This document shows, piece after piece, positions 30,701 to 45,019 of a stretch of 64,000 nucleotides of DNA. Below the pieces are notes generated by a model. The model was not told the DNA's origin. It saw only the letters and a list, made by a program, of their open reading frames with translations, and did not search any database. A program made the translations under genes and the position numbers. This stretch comes from an uncultured virus (IMG/VR IMGVR_UViG_3300025154_000083). Lineage: Duplodnaviria; Heunggongvirae; Uroviricota; Caudoviricetes. The stretch spans positions 1 through 64,000 of the IMG/VR virus record IMGVR_UViG_3300025154_000083, one strand, 5' to 3'. Each line of letters begins with the position of its first letter. Position 1 is the stretch's first letter.

Positions 30701-32470
30701 CCCGCCATTGTTCCGGGGAATCAGATCAAGAAGATAGTCGAGGCCGAGTATGGTCCGCTCCTGGAATCCATGGGTATCGATACCAGCTTGCTCGATTTCA
30801 AGTCTCTTCAGAGCCTGTACCGAATGTTCCAGATGACCAAGCCCCAGGGTCCCGATGTGATTCACGTTTTGCGCGATGGGAAGCCAGTCTATTACCACAT
30901 TCAGGATTCGCTTGTATTGCGGTCGCTCTCGGCGGTGAACGAGCGCCCATGGGGAGGTCCAGCCATGAAGGCCATGCGGACAGCCAAGCGACTCCTTACT
31001 CGGGGCGTCACCGCTGACCCTGGCTTCATGATCGCCAACCTTACTCGAGATACCTTGAGTGCATGGGTGGTTTCCCCCGACTTCAAGGCCGGGGTGGATT
31101 CCGTGAAGGGGGCGATAAAGACTTTTCGTGAAGATGAGGATTATGTGGCGATGCAGGCGTCTGGAGCTGCCTTCTCCGGAGGGTATGCTTTTGGGCATGA
31201 TTTGGAGGCAGCCAAGCGAGAAGTTGAGAAGCTCAACAAGAAATACAAGGTTGACGGGTCAACGGTGCTTAACAGCGTAAAGAAAATGTGGGCGTTCTGG
31301 GAGAAGTTTGGAAGCCGATTCGAGAATGCGACCAGAACACAGATTTATGCCAATATCCGAGCCCGTGGCGGTGCTCACGTCGAAGCGGCCTATGAAGCCA
31401 AGCGCATCATGGATTACTCGAAGCGCGGTGACTGGATGACCATCAAATTCCTCTGCGAGACGGTTCCCTTCTTCGGGGCCAGGCTCCAGGGAGCGCAGCG
31501 CCTTTACCATGGATACCGCGAGAACCCCAGGGGGTTTGCCACGAAGGGGATGATCCTCATGGGGGCTACCCTTGCCTTGTATGCCATGAATGCGGATGAT
31601 GACAGGTATAAGGAGCTTGAGGAATGGGATCGGGACAACTACTATCACTTCTTTGTCCTTGATGAGCATTTCCGTCTCCCCAAACCCTTCGAGGTGGGCG
31701 CCATCTTCTCCACCATCCCGGAGAGGCTGGCCGAGTGGTGGCTTGGGGAAGGGACTTCGAAAGAGTTTGCCAGGCGCATGCTGTTCACGCTGAATCAAAC
31801 TTTCTCGTGGCAGCCTCCGCAGCTCATTGGGCCAATGATTGAGCAGTATGCCAACAAGAGCTTTTTCACTGGACGTCCAATTGAGGGACAGTCCCTGCAA
31901 GCCTTGCAACCAGGAGCGCGCCGCGACCCATGGACCGGGGAAACCGTGTCCGTGATCGGGGAAGCCACCAACGTTTCCCCTAAGAGGATGGAGGCCTTCA
32001 TGCGCGGCTACTTCGGGACGCTCGGGACATATGCACTTATGGCGTCCGATGTCGCCGTGCGATGGATGTATGATTATCCGGACCCTCCAGCTAGCCGCCT
32101 GGATGACCTTCCTGTCATTCGCCGGTTCGTTCAGGAAGACCCGGCCCGCCACACCAAGTATGTCACTTCCATGTACGAGATGATCCGCGAGGTTGACCAG
32201 CTTTATGCCACGGTCAGACGCTATGAGAAAACCATGGAGCCAGGAAAAGCTGGAGAGCTTATCGAGCGGGAACGACGTAAATTGACATACAAAGACACTT
32301 TTAATAAGGTGCAAAGACAATTCAGTATGATTGATCAGGAGATCAGAAACATTCATCTTCGTAGGGATCTCACGCCAGAAATGAAACGGAAAAGTATTGA
32401 TGAGCTTACAAGAAGCAAAAATGAATTAGCCAGAGATGTTTATGATAGCACCAAGGCTGCGTTCAAATGA
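18740..32470 (+). CDS. Giant polyvalent (DarB-like) virion protein, 4576 aa
   Basis: Approximate domains: lysozyme-like 19150-19520; inorganic-PPase-like 21400-21900; ParB/Srx (EGNHR) 22180-22450; N6-adenine MTase (IEPSAGIG, NPPF) 23500-24180; Strawberry-notch helicase (GDGTGVGKGR, DESH, GRTHR) 24580-27700; LPD23 plus zincin HEIQH 28440-29260; ART-like 29300-29670; LPD38-like 31400-32250. Confidence 0.9.
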   Translation: MAYDGRLIDEMAAELLGPPATAATQPATATTPIDTALPEAPAAPASPLPTAAAPTIQSDPMGTTEQPFIPSQASPVFQAPQASPTSPIPTTFKASQIDALAEQLFGPAPEPRTTRRTTSRGLAGGLSDGSIDVGPQGGVVRGYDISRYATDPRHEQSVARYANELSSLSSIEAIDTHIQSVAPGSPVTGSMVASSASRYNVDPFVVLALMRQDSSYGTRGKGARTFNPGNVGNDDAGNMKNFGDWQQGVDAVAGWLSRHKAGAGSEGQGSRGIEGQGLLGLQPFTANAPPASLETRRRALGLIGMQTPEDIAAQKRREAWESAVDDMATELLGPPGVGMADAGKGGSLFGDIESGHTAGGPDAAETYLRAGRVMGVDTSSMLSDLEAKRKRWTLEKPSKAAQEEGMGGYRKWAYEGARSFSHSVSTRLPATVTGALFGGAAGALAGYVTSGAALFGLAEYDRFMEDAEKLGIPREEAYDEAVVAAIAETAFEASSDLLEMKMLKLFGGNLTEPVKGLIRRYVGNVLKIAPVEIATEAPTAAVQAAARESAGMPTPTPGQAALESIPSTAATSLFFAGLGTAAQGRRGQGGTGGEGGAGSEDTGDTGQPATPPSGPKGFPELQRVERIGIEAPQERFGLPAPPEGYPGEPAPEGVPRLPSPTQNWRMMVPDLRGMNRDQMLEYADSRKISLKDRSNKLKIFNSIKAYYDQINPSQLVTGEAATRTPVRQGVQEERYSPEAILARPEVPTPGGPAQRTTPTPQTAARQPLAMPQQEPQQEPQEAMKGEAPDAQGIRSDEGQVYPGGNVQGQGAGEGGQDLEFPKSEEPGGEAARQGTAEEVGQGEPAGLEGQTTREGLEGEAPPLQGQQSEQENPVSIAQQSLKTPLDIAAHEAASSPLNDKPQPTTPQIKADNAELGHFSFQGIPISIESPIGSVRKDVNHDPPKWQRVIKEAHYGRIKGVRGRDKDLLDVFVRTDNLTGDKTLDAKLPVFIIDQINPETGKFDELKAVAGGKDEQQALGTYLANYPEGWQGLGAITEFTMPEFKAWLKGGDATKPVGKKVPKVIETEQGVVKQKEDVDLPFAAGLAEQLAERKRLDQERKDREQAGKEKAEKGSAESEKPKWKTRIDEGPPDWNAGRTDTTRSDRGMIDPREIVGLPGENDEHLLFKRDRTGGYGTAKWNAFVQDVKQNGVKEPIIIFKEKDGKVHISEGNHRVRAAVEAGLKDIPVEIRYFGNSQRDGLVVDTETGKLVKKPEAPAALPAAPPPVTPKQTRTGPTAETAARKPLKEKAEPVAVAEKEVEEEPAAKEEPPLSSRPTTSSPVQPASSTPPTLTVSDLDTKSIIVKGDYTANKDRIAPVLKQHSGLYNGKHKGWVFPKKNEAAVRAALGIGGEKAGKDENVAEKSEQTAQPGPQRIIVGKNRDGDTIYSDDKGARYILEGGMRVQSFVLRPGYIDEQFMTVEEVEAEKPKSEDALEPEPSAPAPVTPAKSMADASREEEQAPAASSSQRLATWVKGKVARKESFTWQDLFSEADKAFSGTQAQGKYTPKDAYDAMEMGVNQAILASDLTMNPSNHTLQEAEQKVKELQNLIAKLPTQSKRTEEMDEFQQFSTPPPLAYLASWVANVNEQDTAIEPSAGIGGLAVFAKNAGAKVFVNELSPRRAAILEEMGFDRVFTENAEQLDNVLLDDVKPTVVVMNPPFSSTAGRIKGQRNTMNAARHIEQALNRLEDRGRLVAIVGRGMSVDAPSFRDWFAKIGKKYTVLADIGLSGKGYQKYGTTFDNRVIVIDKTGPGFDNIIKGSVEDVTEALPLLLGVRNARQRSKTSQGAESSQAQPGRAQGAQEGQTEPRPIVTPQSSVDVVGSGQQEPRPRQPGKRDGEVNEPVEPGRSDEGADGGKRGGRPGGASPQSEQVSGEPGTRVDRPGRGKDDSDREAGLRQQQRLEVSMAKAETQAEALSDSVYDAYKPSVKVAGTKAHPGNLVESAAMASVEAPPADYVPSIPKEVLAAGNLSDAQMETIVRAGQAHDTILEGGERQGFFIGDGTGVGKGREIAGVFLDNWNKGRKKGVWLSANSSLFKDARRDTEGIGDDAEKIFELGKVKATSSINASEGILFGTYDTLKMAAKGEQGKSGKRRIDQVVAWLGADFDGVIALDESHRAGNALQVQGQRGRKDPSKTALAVIELQDKLPNARVVYVSATGATEVMNLAYAKRLGLWGTGTPFPSVQAFVGQIQSGGIAAMELVSRDMKSMGKYLARSLSFHDVTYDKLEHVLTADQRDIYDKLAEGWQTVLNNLNEALQETGVVDEDGKTMDGRAKSAAMSAFWGSHQRFFNQIITSIQMPSVISRMNKELESGNACVIQLVNTNEASLGRAMANLEEDESLEDLDLTPRDQLMQYIERSFPIFQYEQYADEDGNVKSRPVLDANGNPVVNRTAEAMKERLLDQLGSIRVPDGPLEMILNEFGVKDVAEVTGRTQRVVTDESGKRVREKRSKAKTETDAQAFQEGEKNILVFSTAGGTGLSYHADLKAKNQKKRIHFLVQAGWRADVAVQGFGRTHRTNQKQAPHYLLVTTDLKGQKRFLSSIARRLDQLGALTKGQRQTGSQGFFSARDNLESEYATEALQKFLKNLLHDGEISGVSVDDFELQTGMKLRNDNGMQAAASPPMTQFLNRLLSLKYDTQNAVFDAFSKEMDAIVRREIENGTLDQGLENLKAAKIELVSEQTVHTDEKSGAETKYVELDVSNPTPVVSWEESGKVARKGYYQNLRSKNVWGRGSEKLRTKSSGDVVNEALLTAPSSRHQNVETIDLDDEKKWRRVEKEEAEKLWNDEYDKVPKMVTQRTHLISGAILPIWDRLTGKARIVRIQTDKGQRFLGRLINREDLSNTLRNLGASRTTAEYPTDRAIQLLGQGHRLELSNGWTVKESRVSGEMRIEIVGPNFNFDAELARAGVFTERVNWKTRYFIPTGTDAGQVLDKVTKSRPIVDDVAPFQGSGRVGAEEMEGGNAKEEREQEDRQAPTLQGVPKIKITNPEEKITHKAGYSEFFTTVVDADGGQAAKRVSGKAVKVKGLPDGREAFAYKIDGAYPWVVVDKQSGLALASGERTMENAVFTAELSIENVDKEEMDKVFAESELDLLPLYSWQAPGGQGTTNLYSGFPVDELIREIRAAKASIEELMPRIMPRLTDLGARIIARGHNTARTFKEELSRVLGDAFDAVRRYVLKIFAAAQRAYAKLPDAVKNEWGTFAGPKAQWWDKAEGKFSSLYDKREKFEIDDSGARIKKADEILPKEFKFKESDDGFHVYRKGKFEGLGVDKWRAAVDVSQRYGMTLDDILDHPELFKQYPELRKLGLTFLENPDGSKISGSYSPRSNKIEIRYPSKEVFAELGKDLNTNLKKDLLHEIQHAIQKLEDFARGGAPLIEKIKQQHPKEFETAIDRIKSEKPTWTSVRSVFGGDVGQTAAFSIYNRLAGEIEARDVASRSNLTPEQRRATPPYSSENIAPEDAIVRFGDGETQMAVAPKDLPESAKAKLAGTRVVGEDGEPLAVFHGGEAAIGEFKNKPDRRGGNGGFYFTPNARLASVFADQADVPGVHQVYLAIKNPKIVDFDTGASANLSPKDIASLKSQGFDGVIGKRDKTVVEYVVFNSDQIVSALSPEGEAAGKQPEQQGQQKQPEQLRSALTPPLQSEQGAIRLPQLPKFPNWSRAKAQRASTGDAEIDAALNKIGPAQKTTKEKLDAALDNWKLKAEQGIFDRFASLKALAKSAGIDTASNASRIQEDPYVAATMTTSLGDMLATMMNHGVPQWKEGAVWTPTRNKGLAQVFEPVADQLDMFLGWMVGKRAEKLMAEGRENYFTDAEIKALKRIITLPENKAKFLKVEADYIAFKKGVLDFAEASGVINAEERLLWDHDEYVPFYRIMEETQGLKGPRNKNSVASQYSGIKKLKGGESRLGDIFVNIMMNFSHLVDASVKNHATELSIQAAEKMGVAVKAKNQFKPAIVPGNQIKKIVEAEYGPLLESMGIDTSLLDFKSLQSLYRMFQMTKPQGPDVIHVLRDGKPVYYHIQDSLVLRSLSAVNERPWGGPAMKAMRTAKRLLTRGVTADPGFMIANLTRDTLSAWVVSPDFKAGVDSVKGAIKTFREDEDYVAMQASGAAFSGGYAFGHDLEAAKREVEKLNKKYKVDGSTVLNSVKKMWAFWEKFGSRFENATRTQIYANIRARGGAHVEAAYEAKRIMDYSKRGDWMTIKFLCETVPFFGARLQGAQRLYHGYRENPRGFATKGMILMGATLALYAMNADDDRYKELEEWDRDNYYHFFVLDEHFRLPKPFEVGAIFSTIPERLAEWWLGEGTSKEFARRMLFTLNQTFSWQPPQLIGPMIEQYANKSFFTGRPIEGQSLQALQPGARRDPWTGETVSVIGEATNVSPKRMEAFMRGYFGTLGTYALMASDVAVRWMYDYPDPPASRLDDLPVIRRFVQEDPARHTKYVTSMYEMIREVDQLYATVRRYEKTMEPGKAGELIERERRKLTYKDTFNKVQRQFSMIDQEIRNIHLRRDLTPEMKRKSIDELTRSKNELARDVYDSTKAAFK
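21105..21257 (+). CDS. Candidate nested +1-frame gene, 50 aa
   Basis: AAAGGAG RBS then MPKGYEAMRDRFIREGMSRDKAQEKAAKIWNSQNPRNPVGKRHVKEPPKK. Overlaps a low-complexity linker of the giant ORF. Confidence 0.5.
   Translation: MPKGYEAMRDRFIREGMSRDKAQEKAAKIWNSQNPRNPVGKRHVKEPPKK
24183..24560 (+). CDS. Candidate nested +1-frame gene, 125 aa
   Basis: GGAG RBS and a globular helical-looking sequence spanning the linker between MTase and helicase domains. Confidence 0.5.
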   Translation: MHANDPRQVKALNLHKLNRAALKALKKAKQSQDPSLLHSLQLMLWALDNKSLDLDSRVSETVRSMSRWSPEEVMKVLTGESEAGDRVELLRNPSKSPVSQALELIGQVEERMIATARPDYASNSD

Positions 32471-32676: not shown

Positions 32677-35343
32677 ATGTCATTTCAGTCGCTACATAAT
32701 ATGAGAAACATGATTCAAATTCTTATTTTTGTTTCTGCCCTTCTCTTTCAAGGCCTTATCTCTCTGCCCTTCCTCTCTCACGCTCAAGCCTACGAAAAGG
32801 TGATCACCACCAACAACGCGACCTCGCGCATAGCCACCACCATAACGGCGGCCGCAACCTCCATAACCGTCAACCCCGGAACGGGCGCGCTCTTCCCCGA
32901 CCCGACCGCCACCGCGGGGACCTATGCGCCGGCAACGCTATATGACGCCTCGGACAACAAAGAGATCGTCTATATCACCGAGCGGGTAGGGGACATCCTG
33001 ACCGTCGAGCGCGGGAAGGAAGGGACCGTTGCGAGAGAATGGGCCGTCGGGACCGGGATAGGATGCAGGCTCACGTCGAGCATCATTGAGGACAAGCTCA
33101 GAAACCCCATCGACCATGTGTACTACGTGAACGTCTTTGCAGTCGATCAATCAGCGGTCGGGGTTGCCGGGGCATTAGACGATTACAGCCTTGCCGACAT
33201 AAACGAGTACCTTGATTCGGCGGGAATTCAGGCCAGGGTCGTCCTCCCGGCGAAGACGACAAACTATGTCCTTACCGGGAACCTGACCATTTCCGAGGAA
33301 GTGGAGCTCGAAATCCATAAGGGAGCGATGATAGAGCCCGACGGGAATACGCTCACCTTCCCGGGAACCTTGTCCTCTCTTTCCGGGATCGTTGATTGTG
33401 GATGGCAGATATTCGACGCATTATCCGGAGAGGTTGTCGGCCTCAATCGGGTGCGCCCGGAATGGTGGGGGGCGACGGCTGGAGACAACACCGTTGATTC
33501 TGGGATTGCGTGGAACAGCGCAATAGAAGCCCTTGTGCAGCATGGCCGGCTGGATGCCGAGAATGGGGCATATTATCTTGCAACCGGCATATTGGTTGAT
33601 GCAAAGCCGATTTCCATAATCGGGGACATGACCTATGGGACGGTGTTTTCTCCAAAGGCCGGGCTTGCGGCCTGGACGGCCATGATGACCGTGAATAGTA
33701 CGGACAGGGGCACGCCGTCCAATTGGTGGACCACGGCCCATGACAATGGGTTCGTGATGAAGAATGTTACCTTTGAAGGAGGGGGTCGGGACTATCAGTG
33801 TCATGGCTTGGTCTTTACCGGGCAGAATTCGGATGTTCAGCTCGACAATATATTTTACGCGAACATCAAGGGCTCCGGCATGAAGGCCTGTGACCCGTTC
33901 GGCGTCACATATGATGACGTGGTTACGGGCAATGTGATGCAGCAATGCCAGTTCCACAATATCAGGATGCAAAACTGTGGCTACGAGGCCACGGGGGGCA
34001 CGGCAAGCGAAAACTTTGCGGCCAGCCACGCCGCATACGAGATTGGGAGGAATGCGGTTGGAACGGGCTCGCATAACCACCTGAAGCATACCGGGGTTTT
34101 CCAATTGGGCTACTCGAGGTGGAGAGGAATCCGTGTGCTGAACCGGGGCGGAGCGGGGGAAACCGGACCCAACATGCACGAACTGGCTTTCCAGGATTTC
34201 TTCCTTCACGGCACTGTGAGCTTGGCTGGTAATGATGAAAACGGAGACGCCTGGAACACCGATCAGCATTTGATGACCGTTGGGAATATCGTTGCCGACG
34301 GCGAGAGCTCGGCTGACGCCAATTACAATCAGGGCGAGATCAAAACCATTTTCATCGACAGGTTTCATGTGGTGGAAATGGAAGAGAATTATGCCGGGAT
34401 TGTGGTTGGTGAATGCTGGAACGGGGCCGGGAATGACGTTGGTGCTTCCGTGCATCTTGCTTCGGGGCAATTCGGAGCGAGCAGCTACCTTGTCCCATCC
34501 TATGGAATTCTGTTCGATGGAGCGGAAAGTAGCTATGTCGGCGGTATCACATACCAGTCTCCGGGAGGTCCTGCGAATTCGGTTTATGTGAAAAGCTTGC
34601 TGGATGAATTCCAGGAAATAACTCTTGGCCCTGTGTCGGCCGAGGTTCCAACGGGGACTCCCGCAGCTTCGGCCACGGTCTACGTCAAGACCGATATTGG
34701 CCAGGGACAAATCCATGATTTAACGGCTCAGACTTATACGGCGCGCGTCCCGGCCTGCGGGAAAGATGTGACCGGGGATACCGACGGGGCAACCGAGGTC
34801 GTTACCGGACTTGCCTATACTACTAATTTTCCACCTGGATCTCTTGTGTATGTCAGTGCTGGATTTGCAACCACCGGACCCTTTACTGTTTAGGTAGAAA
34901 ACGCAACAGATTTGACGCTGAGCGCCGTGAGCAACTCCGCAGAGGTAAATGTATCCATAATCGGGACCACACGGGAATTCACTCTTGCTAGGGCAACTCC
35001 GGATTACAAATTCATCAAGCAAGCGTGGATAGTTCCGGAGTGGGGAGGACTGGTAGCAGACAACACGGATTACGCCAGCCTGAAGATTGGTTATCGAAAC
35101 AACCTGGGCGCCGACGGGACCGGAAGCCCTGTGAGCACCACGACAAAGTTGGTTGGCGGAGGCGGGACCGGGGATTGGACGGCGTTTATCCCGGTCGAGC
35201 TTGAGGTTGATCGAGGGGTTGCATATCTTCCGACGGGAGGTAGCGTTACCTTTGCAATCGATCAAGTAGGGACCGGCGTCGAGGTGCCGGCCCTGCTTGT
35301 CGGGTTTGAGATGTCGGACTGGAAGTATTTTCAAGATCCTTGA
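32677..35343 (+). CDS. Second tail spike (attachment domain plus beta-helix), interrupted by in-frame TAG at 34891-34893
   Basis: Signal-peptide-like N-terminus ending AQA, attachment domain, VRPEWWGA motif and beta-helix. The frame continues after the TAG to 35343. Confidence 0.7.
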
Positions 35344-35369
35344 GATCATTGAGATCTTTGAGATCCTTG
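35334..35369 (+). repeat. 9-bp tandem repeat AGATCnTTG x4
   Basis: AGATCCTTG AGATCATTG AGATCTTTG AGATCCTTG at the late/early convergence point. Confidence 0.9.
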
Positions 35370-35370
35370 A

Positions 35371-35730
35371 TTACAGAAGTGACCTCCCTCGAAGTTGGGG
35401 CAGTTCTTTTCGTGCTGGCACATCAAACCACTCAAGCACGGTCAGATACACGTCAACGGTGCAGGCCCCTCCATCGGCCCACCGTTGACGCAACGGAATG
35501 TCCGTAGCACACCAGGACCACGGAGCGTTGAGATGGCGAAACTCGGCCCCGTCGAAACCATGGTCCGAGATGACCATGACGTGCGTTCTCTCACGGTCGA
35601 TGCCGCTGAGCACCCGACCAAGCGTTTCGTCGCATCGCTCTATCTCGTGCTCGTATTCAGGGCTCTCTCCACCGAATGCGTGGCCGAACTTGTCCGGGTT
35701 CAAGTGGCAAAATGTCAGCGACTTTGATCG
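35371..35730 (-). pseudogene. C-terminal fragment of an alkaline-phosphatase-superfamily phosphodiesterase
   Basis: PDKFGHAFG.ESPEY...VMVISDHG metal-binding motifs. The N-terminal half is missing and is overlapped by the upstream ORF. Confidence 0.6.
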
Positions 35731-36268
35731 CATCTCCAAACGGAGAGCCAAGACTTTCGCCCAGCAGGCCAAAAGGATATCCGAATTGAAGATGCTGCTG
35801 TTGCTGCGTGGCCAAGCCTCCAAGGCCCGACCGTATCGCCTCCGCCTGAATTCTCCAGTTCTTCGCATTCTCTTCCAGTTTCTTCTCGAGGTCGGCAATT
35901 TTCTCCTTGTCCGTCCTCGACTCCATACCTCTACTTCTCGCGACCTCGGCAACCAAGTGAACCGCGGAGAGAAGCGCATCGGCCTCGGACTGATCGCGGA
36001 GTTTGCCTTGAAGTGAGGATATTGCGGCGGAGTGTTTTTCCTTCAAGGCCGAGATTTTAGTGTCGTGCTCTTCCTTTAGCGCGGCCTTGACCTTCTCGAT
36101 CTTCCCCATGAGGTCTTCCGCATACCTTTCCTTCAAGGCGTTGATGGCCTTGTTCTGGCGGACTTGCATGTCTGTTTCGGCTTCCTCGATGATCTTGTTC
36201 GTGGTTTCATCCGACCTTGCAAGTGCTTTTTCCAGTTCCTTGATTCTTCTGGCCTTTTGAAAAAACAT
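35657..36268 (-). CDS. Coiled-coil hypothetical protein
   Basis: 203 aa, RBS GAGGAG, E/K-rich heptads. Confidence 0.7.
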   Translation of the reverse strand: MFFQKARRIKELEKALARSDETTNKIIEEAETDMQVRQNKAINALKERYAEDLMGKIEKVKAALKEEHDTKISALKEKHSAAISSLQGKLRDQSEADALLSAVHLVAEVARSRGMESRTDKEKIADLEKKLEENAKNWRIQAEAIRSGLGGLATQQQQHLQFGYPFGLLGESLGSPFGDAIKVADILPLEPGQVRPRIRWREP

Positions 36269-36349
36269 GGCGATGATTCTCCTCTTTATATCCTTGAAGG
36301 GGGGAAGGGCTTCCTTGTTTTGCCCTTCCCCCCTTTACCTGCCGTGCCC

Positions 36350-36442
36350 GTCTAACGTGGCGATAACCAGCGGGCGCCTTTACAGACTCACGCCTTACGA
36401 CTGCCAGGCGTGGCGCCCGTCTGGTTCATTGCCGGGTTAGAC
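36350..36442 (-). mobile_element. attC: Integron attC site (93 bp)
   Basis: Minus strand: GTCTAAC-5nt-AATGAACC...GGTTATC-6nt-GTTAGAC. The stop codon of the upstream ORF lies in R''. Confidence 0.9.
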
Positions 36443-36793
36443 GGGCTCAAATTCCACCTTTACGATTGGCCCGCATCTCAGATTTTTGAATGGAAGCCCG
36501 ACATCGGTCACTCGAACATCCACATGCTTCTTCGCTTCCGGGTCGAAAAACCTGACCATGCTTCCCAATTTGAGATGACCATCCCGAGCACAATGTGATC
36601 TCTTGCGGCCCGACAGAATGCTGTCGATAGCATCCGCGTCGAGAGGGCACCACACGTCCACGCCTCCGTTGGCTGCCCTTAGGAAACATCGGTCGGTTTC
36701 ATCCAACTCGGACAGCGGCTTTGCTTCTGGCCAAAATGGCCCTGGGTCATACCCCTTAACATTGGCATATTTCCCAGGCTTTTTACTGGCCAC
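36437..36793 (-). CDS. Cassette-borne hypothetical protein
   Basis: 118 aa, RBS GGAGG, TAA stop inside the attC R'' box. Confidence 0.75.
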   Translation of the reverse strand: MASKKPGKYANVKGYDPGPFWPEAKPLSELDETDRCFLRAANGGVDVWCPLDADAIDSILSGRKRSHCARDGHLKLGSMVRFFDPEAKKHVDVRVTDVGLPFKNLRCGPIVKVEFEPV

Positions 36794-36873
36794 TTCGATT
36801 ACCTCCCGGCCTCGCGGCCTAAAATCACGGCCCTACTTATCTCTACCTTATTCCTTCACTCCTCCCATCCCTC

Positions 36874-37629
36874 CTACGCCACCACAACAACCCCGTCAGG
36901 CAACGCCCCTTCCAAATACCCCTTGATCCCGGCCATGGCCTCCACCTTCCAGGCCCCGCCGTCGGCCTCGTACAAAGCACAACTCGGCATCTTGCCCTGA
37001 GCGCTTCCTTGGAGCCGCAGCACGAACAGCGACTCGGGCTGATCGATCTCGATGAAGGTCCTGAACGGCTTCAAGGCCACCGGGTTGGGAAGCCGGATTT
37101 CTTCCACGAGGGAAATGCCTTGGTTGGTCTGCACTTTCTGAGATACTCCGTCGTCCACCGTGGTCTTGACGGCCGAATCCTTGATATTGCCGAGGAGTTG
37201 CAGAAGCTGGCGCGTGGTGTCGGTCTGAATGAAGCGGGTTTGCAGGCCGATCATGAACTCTTCGTGGGACAGGAAGCGATTGAAGGTGAAGGGATCGAAG
37301 AGGTCTGCGGTGGAGGTGGCGAAGCAGGTGCGCTGCTTCCATGAGCCGTGGAGGTTGGAGAGAATGGACACCGTGTTGAAGTTTTCGACGTGGAAGAAGC
37401 CGGGTCCGATGTCCGGGATGTCAAGGATATCATCGCCTTCTCTGCCGAGAACGCTCGCCCCCTCCCCGTTGTAATAGTCCACGAGGCCGGCGAGAGAAGA
37501 GAGATGGATGGTGTCGGGCTTCGGCTCGTAAACAGGGTGGATCGGCTTTGAGCTGTAGGTCCTTCCGAGCGCCGGGATGATCTCCGGTTGTGCGATGTCG
37601 AGCAGTTTCTGAATGGCTGTTGCTATCAT
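36874..37629 (-). CDS. Conserved phage early protein
   Basis: 251 aa. Motif DDGVSQKV...LPNPVALKPFRTF.EIDQPES.F..R...ALYEADGGAWK. This family usually pairs with the 38168-type gene. Confidence 0.8.
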   Translation of the reverse strand: MIATAIQKLLDIAQPEIIPALGRTYSSKPIHPVYEPKPDTIHLSSLAGLVDYYNGEGASVLGREGDDILDIPDIGPGFFHVENFNTVSILSNLHGSWKQRTCFATSTADLFDPFTFNRFLSHEEFMIGLQTRFIQTDTTRQLLQLLGNIKDSAVKTTVDDGVSQKVQTNQGISLVEEIRLPNPVALKPFRTFIEIDQPESLFVLRLQGSAQGKMPSCALYEADGGAWKVEAMAGIKGYLEGALPDGVVVVA

Positions 37630-37713
37630 GGTGTCGTGCTCCTTTCGTTTGGTGGTGGTGGTGATGGTGAATGCATTTATTCCTTTGTGGTTTATTTTGG
37701 GTTCATGCGCTGG

Positions 37714-38079
37714 CTAGGGCTTTTCTCCCACCGTTAATTGATCTTTGGCTTTCTTGATGATCTCCTTCATGCTGGAGACCATTCCCGCAAAGTCAGTATC
37801 CTTTAGCGTGGAGCGGCATGCGTAATCGCATGTGCATCCGGTGGCAATGAGGAGATACGAGCTCGTTGAAGTGCTTGATGATGCGTCGGATTTCTCCTTG
37901 TCTTTTTTCGGGTTGACCTGGTCTTCCACGCAGACAAGGTAGTTAATCGCGGATTGCAGATCTTTTGACTTTTCCAATCCCTCTTCGATATCTCCGACCT
38001 TTATGGCGCTGACCTGGGAAGCCATCAAAATCATGACGATAATGATCATCGTTGCCACTGTTGCCAATTTTGCATTCAT
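37714..38079 (-). CDS. Secreted hypothetical protein
   Basis: Signal-peptide-like MNAKLATVATMIIIVMILMASQVSA after RBS AAAGGA. Confidence 0.6.
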   Translation of the reverse strand: MNAKLATVATMIIIVMILMASQVSAIKVGDIEEGLEKSKDLQSAINYLVCVEDQVNPKKDKEKSDASSSTSTSSYLLIATGCTCDYACRSTLKDTDFAGMVSSMKEIIKKAKDQLTVGEKP

Positions 38080-38167
38080 GTACTTTTCCTTTCTCATTCA
38101 CTGAGCCCTTGTTTATTTGTCTACCCTATTTTCTTGCTGCGATGAGGTGCGTCGCGCTCCCGCCCTC

Positions 38168-38608
38168 CTACTCAGCAGCCACCTCCCTTCCAGGCATTGA
38201 CACAACCTTCCCCTCTTCACGGCCCTTCTTCTCAGCTTCTCTCGCTTCCTCCAGTCGCGCCTCTTCCTCCCGCAACTGATCCCGCATGTGCATTTGCTTC
38301 GGGTCAGCCGATTCGTACATCACGGGACATCCATTCTTGATACCCAGGTAGCCCTTGGTGGGGTACGATTTCAGCGGGGCCAACTTGGCGGACACGTCAT
38401 GAGTGATGTCCACGAGCTCGCGCTCTTCGTCGGATTTGAGGGAAACGGTGAGGGTGATCTTGCGAACCGTCGTGGCCTTGGTGTTGGGGTCCTGCATGTT
38501 CTTCAGGACCTGCTCGAGTACATGCTCGAAGCGTTCAGCCAGGGCGCCGCCGGCCAGGTTATCGAAGCTCATTGGGGTTGGTTGATTGGGTTGTCTGTTC
38601 TGCGACAT
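38168..38608 (-). CDS. Conserved phage early protein, often annotated replication-terminator-like
   Basis: LAGGALAERF...VLKNMQDPNT.ATTVRKITL motif, RBS AAGGAG. Confidence 0.75.
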   Translation of the reverse strand: MSQNRQPNQPTPMSFDNLAGGALAERFEHVLEQVLKNMQDPNTKATTVRKITLTVSLKSDEERELVDITHDVSAKLAPLKSYPTKGYLGIKNGCPVMYESADPKQMHMRDQLREEEARLEEAREAEKKGREEGKVVSMPGREVAAE

Positions 38609-38677
38609 TTTGTTTTGCTCCTTCTTTGCGGTGATTGGTTGAGAGATGTCAGTAATGTCACGCTCATCGTCTATCTT

Positions 38678-38713
38678 GTTTCAATCCACGCCCCCCCCTG
38701 AGTGGGGAGCGAC
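38678..38713 (-). CRISPR. Solitary type I-C-like CRISPR repeat (no array)
   Basis: Minus strand GTCGCTCCCCACTCAGGGGGGGGCGTGGATTGAAAC matches the I-C pattern GTCGC...GCGTGGATTGAAAC. Only one copy seen. Confidence 0.8.
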
Positions 38714-38729
38714 TCACTCAGGCATCACA

Positions 38730-40247
38730 TTAATGCCCTTCACCATCTTCGTTTTTCTTGTTCTTTTCACTCCTCCTATTTGACTCCCTGATAGCCTCCA
38801 CGACAACCCCGGCATCCGATAAGTCATCTCGGCAGAACTCCACATCGTTGCCCTCGAAGTCGAGGAGGTTGATCGAGCATTCCCCCTTCTCGGCATTGAT
38901 CTCAATGGAGTAGCCGTCGGCAAGGTTTTCTATTATGGCTCCGAGGAGATCGTGAAAGTCCATCCTGAGCTTGGAAGGTTTAGAAGCAATGAGTGAATAA
39001 TCTTCTACTTTCCATTCCTCTATTTGAGCATCGAAGGAATAAGTGCTTCCGTCATTTCGTGGACGGGGCGCTTCATATTTGTTTTTGGCTAACTCAGCAC
39101 TTTTTCTAGTAGCGTGAAGACTAATTACATCCCACTCGTCGCCATCTGATCCACTACCAGTCGTGAGAATGAAAACGATTTTATCGTTTTCGGAAGAGAG
39201 GATCTTTTCTTTCAAGGCATCCCGTTCTTTCTTTAACGCATTCCGCTCTTTCTCAACCTCACGGTAATTCCTTCCAAGATCTTCGTGATTCATGTGCATT
39301 CTGGCAAGGCTTTCGCTGAGCCTCATCACCTGCGCTTCCTGGGACGTAGAGGGGATGGAGGGGGTGGATGGGATAGAGAAGGATGGATAATACTCATGTG
39401 TCGGCCTCATCCCCTTCTCGGCCAGCTTCTCCTCGAGAACGAGTAGTAGCTTTCGGCTCAGAATCGAAACCACCTTATTCTTTTTGGAGAGCTTCCTTGT
39501 TTTCCATGCAATCTCACCCTCCTGCCATGCAATCTCTTTATCCTTCCTGGCCAACTCTTCCTTGCACTCATCGAGCTCCACTTCTCGCTCGGTCAGTTTG
39601 TCTTTGACCTCCGACTTTTCCCTGCACAACAGATTGTATTCCTCTTCCACAATAGCGTTTCTGATTATGAGGCTATTGCTTTCCTTTGTGAGCCCTACAA
39701 CCTCGTCTTTTTCTTTACCAAGCGCAACGCTGAGCTGCATGATCTGATCTGATTTCGCAGTATTCTCCGCAATGATTCCAGCGGGATCACAGTTCGTTTC
39801 AAGATCGTGGATATACCTTCGAAGAGGAGGGGGCAGGGCGTTGATGTTTTCCGAAGTGGGGTGCCAGCCTTCCTTGTGAAGCCAAGCGTGGTCAACTCGG
39901 GCGCCATCCTCATTTATTGACCTCCTATCATCAACCACCCACCACTTAATGACCTTGTACTGCTCCGGATCAAGCGGAAGCCTTGCGCCACTCATAAGAT
40001 CGGCCGACACATTCCCGTCACCGTCCACCCAGGCGTCATATTCGCATCCTTCGGTGACGTGTGCCGTGCTGCCCGGCGTGGAAGATGATACGTTGCATTT
40101 TACCTGGATTGCTCTTGGCACCAAATCTCCGAAGGGGTAGGCGGATGAGCGGTAGTATATTGCCGGGGAAGGGGTGGCGAGGTGTGGTGGTGAAGGTTTG
40201 GGCTTAAAAGATGGTGATGGTGATGGTGTAGTATTTGTTTTGCTCAT
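38730..40247 (-). CDS. Mosaic coiled-coil hypothetical protein
   Basis: 505 aa, RBS AAAGGAG, several short modules separated by coiled coils. Confidence 0.75.
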   Translation of the reverse strand: MSKTNTTPSPSPSFKPKPSPPHLATPSPAIYYRSSAYPFGDLVPRAIQVKCNVSSSTPGSTAHVTEGCEYDAWVDGDGNVSADLMSGARLPLDPEQYKVIKWWVVDDRRSINEDGARVDHAWLHKEGWHPTSENINALPPPLRRYIHDLETNCDPAGIIAENTAKSDQIMQLSVALGKEKDEVVGLTKESNSLIIRNAIVEEEYNLLCREKSEVKDKLTEREVELDECKEELARKDKEIAWQEGEIAWKTRKLSKKNKVVSILSRKLLLVLEEKLAEKGMRPTHEYYPSFSIPSTPSIPSTSQEAQVMRLSESLARMHMNHEDLGRNYREVEKERNALKKERDALKEKILSSENDKIVFILTTGSGSDGDEWDVISLHATRKSAELAKNKYEAPRPRNDGSTYSFDAQIEEWKVEDYSLIASKPSKLRMDFHDLLGAIIENLADGYSIEINAEKGECSINLLDFEGNDVEFCRDDLSDAGVVVEAIRESNRRSEKNKKNEDGEGH

Positions 40248-40301
40248 GGCTTTGATTCTCTCCTTTCAAGGCTATTCCTGACCGGGCTGTCCAGCTCTCC
40301 A

Positions 40302-40706
40302 TTATTGCTTTCTTGCCTTCTTCCCCTCAATCTCCCGCACCACCTCATCAACCCTACCTTCCCGGCACTCCGGAATCCCCTTCCTGGCCCACGAAGCAAT
40401 CCCGCGCTCGGTGTATCCGAACTTCTTGGCAACTCTGGCCCATGTGCCGTAGTGCTCGTAGATTTTGCGGAGGCGCGGGTCTATTTTGGCGAGCGTTTCC
40501 TCATGGGCTCTGAGTGGCTTGGAGGGGATGATGGTGGACTGGGAAGGGTGGAGGGGCGGCGATGGGGGCGGCGATGGGGGCGGCGATGGGGGCGGCGATG
40601 GGGGCGATGATGCTTGGCCTGCTTGATGGGACGTATTCTGGCCGTCCAGGCTGTCTTGATCTTTCATTCGTATATGCTCCTTCCATTCGAGGTTATCATC
40701 CTTCAC
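40302..40706 (-). CDS. HTH-like DNA-binding protein with (PPSP)n linker
   Basis: TWARVAKKFGYTERGIASW helix-turn-helix pattern. 12-bp tandem repeats at about 40553-40608. Confidence 0.6.
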   Translation of the reverse strand: MKDDNLEWKEHIRMKDQDSLDGQNTSHQAGQASSPPSPPPSPPPSPPPSPPLHPSQSTIIPSKPLRAHEETLAKIDPRLRKIYEHYGTWARVAKKFGYTERGIASWARKGIPECREGRVDEVVREIEGKKARKQ

Positions 40707-40732
40707 CTTTCATTTTCACAAATTCCACCACA

Positions 40733-40824
40733 ATCCTACCAAAAAAAATCCAGAATGCAAGATGTTTTTCACTAAAATATTCCGCAAATAGTGCTTGACT
40801 TACATGTTTTTCTCGTGAGATATT
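40733..40824. promoter_or_regulatory. Divergent sigma70-like promoters
   Basis: Leftward TTGCAT(40760-40755)-16-TAGGAT with TG extension. Rightward TTGACT(40795)-18-GATATT with TG extension. Confidence 0.6.
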
Positions 40825-40855
40825 GGCGTTGATGGAATACTTGTGGAAGATTGAT

Positions 40856-41157
40856 GTGGCGGTGGCGGAATGTGTTGACGATGATAAGGTCGTCAACCGG
40901 TAGACGCTAGATTAGCCCTGAAAAGAGAGATGCCGTATTGATGCAGAGACATCATAGTCTTATAAAGCACTCTCCTTCGAGGAGCCGGGACAGTGGGGAA
41001 ATACTTGGTGAAGAAATGCTGTTACGTGTTGTTTGATAATGCAGCTCGATACGGCTTTCTTCGAGGATTGGCAATCTGATAGACCAGACAGATGCGGCAG
41101 CCATTTGGGCGACCCGAGGCTCCACGTGCAGGTTCGAATCCTGTCCGCCACACTCCA
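40856..41157 (+). ncRNA. tRNA-like RNA with expanded D-loop and anticodon region
   Basis: Acceptor GTGGCGG/CCGCCAC-A, D-arm GCGGAAT..GGTAGACGC, T-arm GCAGG-TTCGAAT-CCTGT, and a long base-paired insert with no normal anticodon loop. Confidence 0.7.
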
Positions 41158-41210
41158 AGTCCATGAAACATTATTTACCATTTATTCCTTGAAAGGAGGA
41201 GCGAAAGACT

Positions 41211-41936
41211 ATGGCGGATATCGATGGTATGGACAGCAAGGACAGCACGGACAAGGCATGCAACACCGGCAAGACGTTGAGCATGAATACGTTTGGAGGG
41301 GGTCGGATCATAAGAGCGCGCAAGCCCTTTCTCACCTCAATCGCGGCACAACTCACCATGAGCCAGGCGGTGCAGCGCGGGATGACGGTCGAGGAGATCC
41401 AGGGCTATCTCGAAGGGGCGTTCTCCACCCTTCTCGGAATGAGGAAGAGGGAGATGGAAGAACTTTCCGTGAGCAGAAGAGATGGTGGCGGGATCTCTCT
41501 TTTCTTTCCCGGCTTCCATCCATCCTTCAAGGACAAGCTCGGAAAAGAAGGCCTTGAAGGGGAAGATTTTGACGCCTCTCTCTCCACTCCCAACTCTGCT
41601 TTCCCCGCCATCTCCCCAACTATCTCCCCTGCCGACTCCATCCAGGAAGACAAGGTAATCTGCCTGGAATGCGGGAAAGAGTTCAAGCAGCTCACGCAGA
41701 AGCACCTCTTTCTTCACGGCCTCTCTCCCAAAGAGTACAAGCAGAAGCACGGGATGAGGCTGAAAACTTCCCTCATGGCCAAGTCGTTGTCCGCGGCGAG
41801 GTCCGAGGCTGCGAAAGCGAGGGGTGTGCCTGAGAATCTGAAGGCGTTTCAGGAGGAGAGAAGACGGAAGAAGGTGGTGGAGGGTGGGAAGGTGCCGATG
41901 GATGGGGAGGCGATGGGCGGCGATGATGGCAAGTAA
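41211..41936 (+). CDS. mucR: Ros/MucR-family transcriptional regulator
   Basis: SIQEDKVICLECGKEFKQLTQKHL..HGLSPKEYKQKHG prokaryotic zinc finger, RBS AAAGGAGG. Confidence 0.85.
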   Translation: MADIDGMDSKDSTDKACNTGKTLSMNTFGGGRIIRARKPFLTSIAAQLTMSQAVQRGMTVEEIQGYLEGAFSTLLGMRKREMEELSVSRRDGGGISLFFPGFHPSFKDKLGKEGLEGEDFDASLSTPNSAFPAISPTISPADSIQEDKVICLECGKEFKQLTQKHLFLHGLSPKEYKQKHGMRLKTSLMAKSLSAARSEAAKARGVPENLKAFQEERRRKKVVEGGKVPMDGEAMGGDDGK

Positions 41937-41979
41937 CGAGAAGAGCAAGTAACGAGAAGAACAAGGAAGGGGTAGAATC

Positions 41980-42264
41980 GTGAATCGACCGACTCACCAA
42001 GCAGCACTTGATACCAAAGAAAAGATATTCTATGACTCGCCAACCTTGGTTAGAAGAGAACATGGATCATTGTTGCGTAGCTCCGTTATGAGCATATTCA
42101 ATATGTTTCATGGGTCGGTGCGCCCCGAGCAGCGGAGTTGGTTTAGTAATCGGGGAGTATCCCGCGCCGACGCCAACCGTGGCAGACAAGCCAACGCCAT
42201 CACGAAGCGCCGTCGCCTTCGAGACATCGGTCGTGAGTCCCGGCGGCGGAACCGATCGGCATGA
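41980..42264 (+). CDS. Basic hypothetical protein
   Basis: 94 aa, GTG start after a purine-rich RBS. Confidence 0.45.
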   Translation: MNRPTHQAALDTKEKIFYDSPTLVRREHGSLLRSSVMSIFNMFHGSVRPEQRSWFSNRGVSRADANRGRQANAITKRRRLRDIGRESRRRNRSA

Positions 42265-42448
42265 CGCAGCAATCCAATCAGCGGCTCCGAGAGCACCACT
42301 CCGCAAGAGCGACCGGCGCATAGGTCTGAAGGGTGTCGTGTACCGCGCCGAATGCTGGAGCCGCTTTAATCATTTCTCTTCTTTCTCTTTATCCGGCAGG
42401 GAGGGATGTCTAGTAGAGATGGATATCTAGTAGGAAGGGATACAAACC

Positions 42449-42595
42449 ATGCAATCACTTCTCGATCTTCAAGGATGGCAACTCTTTTGGACCTGTGCGG
42501 CGGTCGGCATAATCTGCGGCGGGGCAATGGCGGGGCTTATGGCTCTTGTGAATTGGGGATGGGAGGCTTTGGGTGGAGAGGAGGGACGTGGATAA
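42449..42595 (+). CDS. Small membrane protein, 48 aa
   Basis: MQSLLDLQGWQLFWTCAAVGIICGGAMAGLMALVNWGW..., RBS AAGGGA. Confidence 0.5.
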   Translation: MQSLLDLQGWQLFWTCAAVGIICGGAMAGLMALVNWGWEALGGEEGRG

Positions 42596-42692
42596 ATGGG
42601 GAATGGCGGAGGGAACGAGGATGAGGACGTCCAAGGATGTTGTTGACGAAACCAAGGTAGCCGATGACAGGTCAACCACCGAAGTGTTTTTC

Positions 42693-42721
42693 TTGCATTC
42701 ATACTTGATTTGAGGCATACT
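42693..42721 (+). promoter_or_regulatory. Sigma70-like promoter
   Basis: TTGCAT-17-CATACT. Confidence 0.6.
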
Positions 42722-42784
42722 CTCCAAACCAAACAACAACCGGGAGCCTCCGTAATGGCTATTTTTGTTTCAAGACATTCAGTT

Positions 42785-42855
42785 AGCGTCAGGGAACCGC
42801 ATATCGTAAGGTATGCGGGGGCCGTTGTTGGTCCGGTACCCCCTGGCGCTTTTTT
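42785..42855 (+). ncRNA. Three-stem RNA resembling C4/CI antisense RNA or an attenuator
   Basis: Closing stem AGCGTCAGGG/CCCTGGCGCT plus T-run, hairpin CCGCATATC-GTAA-GGTATGCGG, and hairpin GGGCC-GTTGTT-GGTCC. Confidence 0.55.
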
Positions 42856-42868
42856 ATTGGGGGATACC

Positions 42869-43390
42869 ATGCCTCAGCACGTCAAGGAAGGTCCGTCGAA
42901 ATATTGTGAGCAATGCGGAAAGAAAATGGAGAGAAAGTATTACAATGGAAGGCGTGAAGATTTCACGCGATTCATGGCAAGACGATTTTGTGACCTGACA
43001 TGCTCTGGATTATCCATAAGAGGCATAAGGGTTTTGAATGAACAAACAAGCCGAGCACGATCTGCAAAATTTGCCAAAACAGAATGTGAACAATGCGGCG
43101 GGAATGAGTACCTCCAAGTCCACCACAAAGACCACGATCCACTAAACAACGACATCAGAAATTTGATTACCCTTTGCATGTCATGTCACGTAAAGGCTCA
43201 TCATGCAGAATGGCTATCCAAGAACGCAAACAGGACTTGTGAGTATTGCGATTCTCCAGTCAAGGGTCTTGGCTTGTGCATGAAGCACTATCAAAGAGTC
43301 AAAAAGCACGGTGATCCATTTCTTGTAGTAAAGCGATTACCGGGAGATGCACCTGGAGCCAAGGGACACCTGGTTCGGGTTGCTGACTGA
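42869..43390 (+). CDS. HNH endonuclease with zinc-finger modules
   Basis: CEQCG..LQVHHKDHDPLNNDIRNLITLCMSCH and GLCMKHYQR. Start MPQH after GGGGGA. Confidence 0.85.
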   Translation: MPQHVKEGPSKYCEQCGKKMERKYYNGRREDFTRFMARRFCDLTCSGLSIRGIRVLNEQTSRARSAKFAKTECEQCGGNEYLQVHHKDHDPLNNDIRNLITLCMSCHVKAHHAEWLSKNANRTCEYCDSPVKGLGLCMKHYQRVKKHGDPFLVVKRLPGDAPGAKGHLVRVAD

Positions 43391-43393
43391 TAG

Positions 43394-43573
43394 AACATAG
43401 GACAAGTCTCCACTTTCCCGCTCAGCCCCAAAGAAGCGTGGCAAGGTAGCCGAGTCGGACTCTTGAGGCTTGCGGGAAATGCGATCAACCCCAGGACGGC
43501 AGCGGTGTTTATCGAGGAATTCATGGCGGCAATCATGGAATTGAGGGAGGGGAAAAGGGAAGGGGATAAATGA
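43394..43573 (+). pseudogene. C-terminal remnant of a C5-cytosine DNA methyltransferase
   Basis: STFPL...SRVGLLRLAGNAINPRTAAVFIEEF resembles motifs IX-X. It has no start codon and follows TGA TAG in the HNH frame. Confidence 0.55.
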
Positions 43574-43740
43574 TTTCATTGTCAAGTATCAGCATTTTTC
43601 TTCTTGGCCTGTTTGTCGGAGTGTTTGTCGGCATGTTCGCCATGGGGCTTTGCCAAGCCGCGGCGAGAGCTTCAAGGGCGGAAGGGCGCGTTGAGCCCAG
43701 CCATGCACCCAACCCGGCGCCTCGAGTAGTGAAGCGATAA
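43570..43740 (+). CDS. Small membrane protein (DUF3789-like)
   Basis: MISLSSISIFLLGLFVGVFVGMFAMGLCQAA... Confidence 0.6.
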   Translation: MISLSSISIFLLGLFVGVFVGMFAMGLCQAAARASRAEGRVEPSHAPNPAPRVVKR

Positions 43741-43807
43741 AGCGATGAGCCACGAAACATAAATCACCAAGACACCAAGACACCAAGAAAGGAGAACCTT
43801 CCCAGCC

Positions 43808-44527
43808 ATGTCATACCAGCCACGCCATAGAAACCCCATGGTAGCACTCCACGGCCCGGGTCCCGACGGAACACTATGCCGGCACTGCAACCACGTAGAT
43901 TCCGACCTTCATGGAAAGGATGGCGGCAAGTTCAACAGGTTCTTCTGTAAGATAGCTTCCGGATCAGAATCCGAATCCCCAACCTCCAATGGCTACATCG
44001 ATGCCATCCACGAAATAGCCAGGCAAAACCCGAAATTCTACCTTGCCAACTACCAGAAATACAATCACCGCATCACCTGGCCGTCCTGCTCGCTCTTTTC
44101 GGGACAGGCCACGATCACGTATCTCTGCAAGGGAACCTGCGGGAAAGAGTACACCATCGCCAGGACCGGGAGCGACAGCAGAAGGTTTACCGGGTACTGC
44201 CAGAGCTGCGCCGAAATCTCACACCGGGAGAAACGGGAGCTTGCACGGGAGATGGCGGAGAAGATGTTGCCTCGGTATGAGAGGAAGGAGGTTCGGAGGA
44301 AGGGTGGCGGTGGGAAGGAAGTGGGCGAGAAGGAAGAAGGGGATGTGAAGGTGTGCTTTCCGATCAAAGCAAAGGAGGGGACGAAGCGGCATAAGTGCCT
44401 GGGAAACAGCATCGCGGAAGAGTGTCATTCGTATAGTGCATGCATAAATTATGCTTGTAAAATGGGGTGGAGCGGGTTTCGGGATTGTGGCGAAGAAGGG
44501 AAAAGAGGTAATATAAAAGAAGGGTAA
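43808..44527 (+). CDS. Cys-rich hypothetical protein
   Basis: 239 aa, RBS AAAGGAG, several CxxC-type motifs. Confidence 0.7.
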   Translation: MSYQPRHRNPMVALHGPGPDGTLCRHCNHVDSDLHGKDGGKFNRFFCKIASGSESESPTSNGYIDAIHEIARQNPKFYLANYQKYNHRITWPSCSLFSGQATITYLCKGTCGKEYTIARTGSDSRRFTGYCQSCAEISHREKRELAREMAEKMLPRYERKEVRRKGGGGKEVGEKEEGDVKVCFPIKAKEGTKRHKCLGNSIAEECHSYSACINYACKMGWSGFRDCGEEGKRGNIKEG

Positions 44528-44533
44528 AACAAC

Positions 44534-45019
44534 ATGATAACAAAATCAGCCATATTCTCGAAATGCCGCACGTATCGCTATTCCCTTTCCAGGGTTTGGA
44601 ATACCAGTCTTCCTGGCATGCTTTGGATCGGTCTTAATCCATCCACTGCAACCGAGACCGAGGACGACCCCACCATAAGGCGATGCATGCGGTTTGCCGC
44701 ATCCTGGGGATATGGCGGAATAGTCATGTGCAATCTGTTTGCGGTTCGAGCTACCGACCCCAAGGTCATGTTAGCTCATCCCATCCCTGTCGGCCCCGAA
44801 AATGATACATGGGTTGATGCTTATTCCAGAGAGGTTGCGTTGATTGTGGCTGCGTGGGGCACTCACGGAAGACATATGCATAGGGACATGGAAGTAATGG
44901 AATTATTGAGGCGTGAGAGCGAACAAGGAAAGATCAAATGTTTGAAGCTCACGAAAGACGGAGCACCATGGCACCCATTGTATGTTAAGGGAGACGCCAA
45001 GCTTTTGAAATATCCTTGA
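44534..45019 (+). CDS. DUF1643 family protein
   Basis: YRYSLSRVW, IGLNPSTA, DDPTIRRC, NLFAVRATDP, AAWG and HPLY motifs. Confidence 0.9.
   Translation: MITKSAIFSKCRTYRYSLSRVWNTSLPGMLWIGLNPSTATETEDDPTIRRCMRFAASWGYGGIVMCNLFAVRATDPKVMLAHPIPVGPENDTWVDAYSREVALIVAAWGTHGRHMHRDMEVMELLRRESEQGKIKCLKLTKDGAPWHPLYVKGDAKLLKYP

Follow-up and report, generated by a model that had tools for sequence, protein, structure and literature searches.

Introduction

Virus-borne mini-CRISPR arrays, which are said to have been described by Faure et al. 2019 and Medvedeva et al. 2019, reportedly consist of two or more repeats on viruses free of cas genes, with spacers against related viruses. A further class of viral repeats is made up of the solitary repeat units (SRUs), which act as RNA anti-CRISPRs (Racr) and of which 2,103 are listed on viral sequences according to PMC10651486. 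The abstract of that paper reports the functional testing of nine candidates and the confirmation of inhibition; its supplementary file 3 holds 30 SRUs containing GTCGCTCCCC, and type I-C SRUs are common there in IMG/VR viruses. A validated type I-C representative is RacrIC1 of a Bifidobacterium pseudocatenulatum prophage (Camara-Wilpert et al. 2023, PMC10651486), which lies 11 nt behind an acrIC5 homologue, in a bicistronic arrangement with it. RacrIF1, a type I-F repeat mimic from the same paper, competes with crRNAs for Cas proteins; Cas6f stays on its hairpin, and the RNA upstream inhibits via a Cas6f-Cas7f filament devoid of Cas5f and Cas8f.

Viral crlRNAs ('Cracr'; Liu et al., 10.1101/2024.10.29.618823) are also repeat-derived viral RNAs that use host Cas proteins. 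In that work, a pseudo-spacer lies between pseudo-repeats on both sides and has 9 or more PAM-proximal bases in common with a CreA/CreR spacer of the host. The processing of the type I-C repeat is treated in PMC8524198, which gives a 7-nt stem, a 5-nt loop and overhangs of 2 and 11 nt. Recognition by Cas5c is centred on a U-G-G just downstream of the stem and on the 3' overhang, whereas changes in the loop are tolerated. Cas5c itself is retained on the 5' handle, which lies at the tail end of Cascade.

In the present study, a lone type I-C repeat in the genome of an uncultured groundwater phage was compared with these systems. An earlier note, made from the letters of the DNA, had proposed that it serves as a Cascade decoy, a guide for silencing of host genes or an mRNA processing site.

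Results

Phage genome and position of the repeat

The stretch of DNA analysed, referred to as the window, runs from position 1 to 64,000 of an IMG/VR record (IMGVR_UViG_3300025154_000083) that is 67,213 bases long and has a CheckV completeness of 97%; the window has 54% G+C and contains no tRNA gene. Head, tail-fibre and internal-virion genes, including an ORF of 4576 aa, occupy the plus strand from position 59 to about 35,300, and replication genes, namely those of a RecD2-type helicase, exonuclease-like proteins and a primase, are found from about 46,500 to 62,600. The phage looks virulent, and the search of 59 ORFs against NCBIfam (E ≤ 1e-5) gave no integrase family and no Cas family, with none in PHROGs either. 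This bears out the statement of the earlier note that cas genes are lacking.

Some other features of the genome may be recorded here. The 4576-aa ORF of the virion module (18740-32470, plus strand) matches phrog_18222 in its C-terminal part, and it contains an endolysin-like segment (residues 883-1059) and a weak ParB-like segment (residues 1182-1236). A pentapeptide-repeat protein is encoded among the replication genes (57133-57882, minus strand), and three HNH endonuclease genes occur in the non-structural half (42710-43390, plus strand; 48931-49692 and 58706-59278, minus strand). A low-complexity CACCAAGA repeat at 43757-43796 stands before the ORF at 43808-44527 and gives short spurious matches in several genomes.

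The window carries one complete 36-nt type I-C CRISPR repeat, GTCGCTCCCCACTCAGGGGGGGGCGTGGATTGAAAC, on the minus strand (38713 to 38678), as delineated by its fold, a covariance model and blastn. It lies within a minus-strand block of small function-unassigned genes (41181 to 35657), 16 nt past the TAA (38732-38730) of a 505-aa ORF (38730-40247) and 69 nt ahead of a 146-aa ORF (38168-38608), and is read in the same sense as both of these minus-strand genes. The repeat opens with a 2-nt 5' overhang, GU, followed by the 5' arm of the hairpin (38711 to 38704), an enlarged loop, the 3' arm (38696 to 38689) and the 11-nt 3' handle UGGAUUGAAAC (38688 to 38678). Going by the cleavage site and recognition rules in PMC8524198, the cut by Cas5c would be expected between 38689 and 38688. 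Behind the handle, a unique flank of 35 nt (38677 to 38643, minus strand) takes the position of a spacer and may be called a pseudo-spacer, and the remaining 34 nt (38642 to 38609) lead into the downstream gene and contain its ribosome-binding site, AAGGAG, at 38623 to 38618. The description in the earlier note of an intergenic 36-nt repeat with hairpin, handle and enlarged loop is accurate once the element is read on the minus strand; its placement in sense to the operon holds on both sides, and the flank that it quoted was located as the 35 nt given above.

The intergenic status of the repeat is upheld by the downstream 146-aa ORF, which is a real gene with homologues. Its product belongs to the YfdP / 'replication terminator protein' family (phrog_997, 3.4e-26) and has an Atlas score of 0.92; PF27127 (YfdP) is present in 10-20% of the cluster members, and 8 homologues were found. 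The homologues P0004-P0009 show 57-89% identity. The AlphaFold model of this protein is poor (pLDDT 49.8). The upstream 505-aa protein, with its coiled-coil-like middle part, gave no match in PHROGs, Pfam, NCBIfam or PDB sequences beyond a weak, sub-cut-off hit to Pfam Fez1; its Atlas matches score only 0.80, and it is 87% identical to its counterpart in the related phage G001. Sequence searches of the PDB with the neighbouring proteins yielded nothing significant, and no known anti-CRISPR protein family adjoins the repeat in PHROGs, Pfam, NCBIfam or the Atlas. Since neither a sigma-70-like promoter directly upstream nor an intrinsic terminator beside the repeat was predicted, co-transcription with the operon is the simplest assumption.

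Relation to type I-C array repeats

A scan of species genomes (one genome per species) with the pattern GTCGCTCCCC-N3-9-GGGGNGCGTGGATTGAAAC returned at least 121 loci. Among the matches listed, many loci are long arrays of up to 127 repeats, in organisms which, by record title, include Chloroflexota, Acidobacteriota, Lentisphaerae and Desulfobacterales. The matches listed comprise 61 distinct repeat variants, nearly all of 33 nt, and the stem U-G wobble of the window repeat is common among these 61.

A covariance model, designated R1, was built from 45 distinct variants of real arrays, each seen at least twice. It aligned with the window repeat over its full length, with 3 inserted loop nucleotides, at 49.1 bits (E 1.8e-11 for 64 kb, both strands), as compared to 11 bits (E 1.2) for the second-best site in the 64 kb; the same outcome was obtained over the full 67,213-nt record. 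Because the training repeats had been fetched by a pattern derived from the window element, this E-value tells how close the element is to an authentic array family and should not be taken for the statistic of a blind search. The exact 12-mer of the handle occurs once in the 67,213-nt record. The Rfam models on their own lend the element no support: none reached its gathering score in the window, and CRISPR-DR9, for which that score is 45, attained 22.4 bits (E 0.015 in 501 nt and 1.9 for the whole window).

The closest family in the metagenome scan is GTCGCTCCCCACTCGGGGGGCGTGGATTGAAAC, a 33-nt repeat with 190 copies at 16 loci, and the window repeat equals this sequence with A and GG inserted at the loop. 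The blastn alignment of the two is identical at 33/33 positions with a 3-nt insertion and covers 100% of the repeat, scoring 44.1 bits with blastn-short and 50.9 bits with blastn. The nearest species-genome repeat among the matches listed is that of a 16-copy array, L163; it differs from the SRU by 1 mismatch and a 2-nt gap. This array, the single locus checked for cas neighbours, adjoins cas2, Cas1c and cas4, and its Cas1c reaches 453.5 bits with the I-C-specific NCBIfam model TIGR03640 (cut-off 385). According to R1 and blastn, the departures from array repeats are confined to the loop, and the stem, the UGG and the complete handle are intact. Judged by its sequence, this phage element is a true type I-C repeat and a solitary one.

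Solitary status

Local alignment of the repeat with its flanks revealed no second repeat, the observed score being reached by 319 of 500 shuffles of the 118 nt downstream and by 198 of 500 of the 127 nt upstream. R1 finds a single site in this record and in each of two relatives (85,285 and 89,432 bases). The claim of the earlier note that a second repeat is absent thus agrees with both analyses. A candidate degenerate second repeat at 38645 to 38612 (CRISPR-DR10, 16.9 bits, E 0.54) did not rise above shuffled flanks and was discarded. A 13-nt match to the 5' half of a repeat at about 2238-2250 lies within an ORF, is devoid of the handle and was taken as chance.

As given in PMC10651486, SRUFinder asks for a coverage of at least 90%, a bit score of at least 41.1, an intergenic position and the absence of a full or partial repeat within 100 bp. 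The window repeat has 100% coverage and 44.1/50.9 bits, values that refer to self-collected repeats rather than to the SRUFinder database, and it is intergenic with no full or partial repeat within 100 bp. Its carrier, a virus record of IMG/VR, encodes head, tail and internal virion proteins and has no Cas family in the 59 ORFs. Two or more repeats around a spacer, as in a CRISPR mini-array, are not found here, and neither are pseudo-repeats on both sides of a pseudo-spacer, as in a viral crlRNA. The exact SRU and the contig number 3300025009 are absent from the accessible supplementary files of PMC10651486.

Fold, alternative hairpin and G-run

The 36-mer alone is predicted to fold into the canonical hairpin (−15.8 kcal/mol), leaving overhangs of 2 nt at the 5' end and 11 nt at the 3' end, the latter ending in ATTGAAAC; these are the dimensions of a type I-C hairpin. 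This hairpin is both the minimum free energy and the centroid fold, and it is also the centroid fold of the 124-nt intergenic RNA. The predicted stem has 8 pairs, including one U-G, and the loop is of 7 nt, or of 4 nt plus a bulge. All parts read by Cas5c, as they are set out in PMC8524198, are intact in the window repeat. The loop of the element exceeds those of all 63 array repeat variants compared by 3 to 5 nt. The fold energy of the 124-nt intergenic RNA is no better than that of shuffled sequences (z −0.06).

An alternative 8-bp hairpin was also detected, in which CCTGAGTG (38722 to 38715, minus strand) forms the 5' arm and pairs with CACTCAGG at 38704 to 38697 within the repeat. The perfect complement between CCTGAGTG and CACTCAGG is completed by the A inserted in the loop, and when the 40-nt upstream flank was shuffled 5000 times, a complement of at least 8 nt arose in 59 cases. 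The two hairpins are mutually exclusive; at −12.7 kcal/mol, the alternative one is less stable than the canonical one by 3.1 kcal/mol.

The repeat contains a G-run of variable length (38698 to 38689, minus strand). Eight G are present in the window and in one further record; two other records, as well as contigs from four runs, have 10 G. The 10-G allele corresponds to a 38-nt form of the repeat with a loop insertion of 5 nt and a predicted stem register shifted by one, a shift that could, by the fold model, impair processing.

Relatives and conservation

Blastn of 37000-41000 against known phages gave one 110-nt match only. Besides the window, three related phage records carry the element. 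IMGVR_UViG_3300025009_000068 is identical to the window in this region, and IMGVR_UViG_3300002097_000027 is about 93% identical over 4 kb; the latter differs between 38600 and 39799 by one substitution and two extra G in the G-run, as compared to up to 43 differences per 100 nt in the flanks beyond. The 38-nt form is also present in a 92,963-base metagenome contig. In four runs, from groundwater and soil by record and from at least 3 studies, the contigs all have 10 G, with CC inserted behind 38690 and no other change between 38580 and 39405. None of the runs listed for the stretch was an RNA run.

Among the relatives, therefore, the element varies only in its G-run, with 8 or 10 G, and from these sequences it is a stable part of this phage lineage. 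Conservation is uninformative on selection for the repeat itself because the whole block of about 1.2 kb, coding sequence included, is nearly identical. In the surroundings of remoter homologues of the 146-aa protein (31-49% identical; 29 loci), no type I-C repeat was present.

Searches for a target of the flank

In type I-C systems, Cas5c stays on the handle; the 35 nt behind the repeat would therefore take the place of a guide, and the flank was searched on this ground. A 32-nt flank pattern with every sixth base free found 0 loci in 185,579 species genomes and only the two repeat-bearing relatives in IMG/VR; the 18 PAM-proximal bases likewise found only those two relatives in IMG/VR. The same 18 bases gave 16 loci in the species genomes, which is about the number expected by chance as estimated. 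The PAM of type I-C is TTC; it stood upstream of 0/16 of these loci, and none of them matched above 26/35 bases. Excision of the repeat would leave TGA, not TTC, before the flank.

In five genomes with similar type I-C arrays, no match of PAM plus seed was found at the cas loci. An 11-base seed with TTC on one contig (G007, C29) falls in an AT-rich stretch off the cas-locus contig; it is no more than chance would give in 26 Mb of searched sequence and was set aside. The proposal in the earlier note of a guide for silencing host genes is not supported by these searches, the flank having no protospacer in IMG/VR or in the 185,579 species genomes and no pseudo-repeat following downstream.

Search for the host

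No spacer matching the phage was found in the array loci searched (at least 121 listed and 17 more), the best candidate agreeing at 20/34 bases. The window region 41211-41936 (plus strand) encodes a ROS/MucR transcription-regulator domain (Pfam, 1.2e-25), the relatives of which, at 31-37% identity, occur in MAGs titled Thermodesulfobacteriota, Syntrophobacteria or Deltaproteobacteria. By its sequence kinship, this MucR-like domain may be regarded as a weak hint only to the host. In 401 genomes sampled from the phylum of a MAG titled Thermodesulfobacteriota, comparison with 35001-55000 of the window revealed no spacer against the phage, and the similarities were limited to gene-level matches to the helicase and MucR genes and to low-complexity matches.

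Discussion

Comparison with known systems

The locus resembles RacrIC1 in having a single type I-C repeat on a phage without cas genes, in sense and just behind the preceding stop codon (11 nt in RacrIC1, 16 nt in the window), where it is probably co-transcribed, as judged from the description in PMC10651486. Unlike RacrIC1, the preceding gene encodes a 505-aa protein of no recognised family and not an AcrIC5 homologue; the phage is environmental and virulent-looking, and the repeat has an enlarged loop and a variable G-run. The competition of a repeat mimic with crRNAs for Cas proteins, as described for RacrIF1, is shared with the interpretation offered here. However, the protein that stays on the hairpin in type I-F is Cas6f, whereas Cas5c of type I-C stays on the handle according to PMC8524198; because of this retention, the RNA downstream of a lone type I-C repeat should be the part that is loaded.

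Viral crlRNAs agree with the window in being repeat-derived viral RNAs that use host Cas proteins, but the window differs from the description in 10.1101/2024.10.29.618823 in carrying a single full repeat without a second one and in the lack of a match in IMG/VR or species genomes. With the mini-arrays, the window shares the presence of a CRISPR repeat on a virus without cas genes, and it differs from them in its single repeat for which no target was found.

Interpretation of the element

The explanation that best accommodates these observations is that the element is a solitary type I-C repeat unit acting as an RNA anti-CRISPR, a decoy of the Racr type; on the present analysis this may be given a rough probability of 0.55. 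It is the first of the roles named in the earlier note, and it fits a full-length, intergenic and solitary type I-C repeat in the sense of its operon, on a cas-free virus and in a placement like that of RacrIC1. Transcription of the minus-strand operon would run through the element on its way from the 505-aa ORF to the YfdP-like gene. If the host has a type I-C system, Cas5c would then recognise the repeat hairpin together with the UGG and the handle behind it, presumably bind and cleave the transcript, and become loaded, probably along with Cas7 and Cas8c, onto a phage RNA that has no target. The Cas proteins would in this manner be drawn off the host crRNAs, and interference against the phage might be weakened. 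Against such a decoy stand the lack of a phage-matching spacer in the loci searched, of an adjacent acr gene and of a sigma-70-like promoter directly upstream, as well as the lengthened loop with the shifted stem register of the 10-G allele.

An inert relic, i.e. a repeat, perhaps with one spacer, recombined from a host CRISPR array and now functionless, is an unlikely alternative to the decoy, and the 3-nt loop insertion and variable G-run would then be signs of decay. All 63 array repeat variants compared do have shorter loops, and the homopolymer varies in length; such a repeat is found at 0/29 loci around the more distant YfdP-like homologues, and selection is not demonstrable with all copies lying in a nearly identical block. 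Decay would, however, have spared all positions outside the loop, stem, UGG and entire handle included, and altered only what Cas5c tolerates according to PMC8524198, in a repeat that agrees in orientation with the operon and is intergenic rather than within a gene. The same retention of Cas5c on the 5' handle, described in that text, means that one repeat is enough for a crRNA-like 5' end, and a one-repeat guide can therefore be envisaged, in which the cut by Cas5c leaves the 11-nt handle on the 35 nt and an assembled Cascade is steered to a promoter of host cas or defence genes, as by a viral crlRNA ('Cracr'), or to a competing phage lacking the insert. The flank is unique and of spacer length before the ribosome-binding site begins, and viral crlRNAs against type I-C systems are on record in 10.1101/2024.10.29.618823. 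A guide of this kind is nevertheless improbable in view of the missing downstream pseudo-repeat, the absence of a protospacer from IMG/VR and the species genomes, the 16 chance-level loci with TTC at 0/16, the best PAM-plus-seed match in the five genomes with type I-C arrays (an AT-rich spacer region off the cas-locus contig) and the TGA left ahead of the flank on removal of the repeat.

The hairpin, or a switch between its canonical and alternative forms, might instead serve the expression of phage genes with or without Cas5c, either by stabilising the 3' end of the upstream message or as a processing site that uncouples the YfdP-like gene. The genes on either side of the element do run in the same direction, neither a promoter nor a terminator is predicted close by, and the alternative hairpin exceeds chance (59/5000 shuffles), its complement being perfected by the loop insertion; but a role of this sort leaves the perfect 11-nt type I-C handle after the stem-loop unaccounted for, and the z of −0.06 for the 124-nt fold and the 3.1 kcal/mol advantage of the canonical hairpin also oppose it, which makes it very improbable. 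A bolder variant, conjectural and given little credence, would have the single repeat turn the downstream mRNA leader into a guide and re-arm the host Cascade by one 36-nt insert and no phage protein, against a host immune promoter or a rival phage without the insert, while the alternative hairpin and the slippery G-run tune the amount of repeat hairpin.

Lone-repeat decoys have already been described in other phages, and the present element is otherwise an ordinary instance of a published phenomenon. If active as a decoy, it would add a type I-C RNA anti-CRISPR from an uncultured, virulent-looking groundwater phage, and one embedded in an operon rather than encoded as a separate small RNA gene. 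The retention of Cas5c on the handle also blurs the line between decoy and guide in type I-C systems, a point that is directly testable.

An odd tandem of repeats (L056/L190) was observed in a groundwater MAG titled Deltaproteobacteria (G003, contig C83, about 2220-2375). It consists, in order, of a degenerate type I-C handle, 31 nt, a full type I-C repeat with an 8-G run, 34 nt and an I-E-like repeat; each repeat is single copy in the 4.4-Mb MAG, and no phage genes were recognised nearby. This tandem may be an orphan mini-array of two types or a multi-type decoy.
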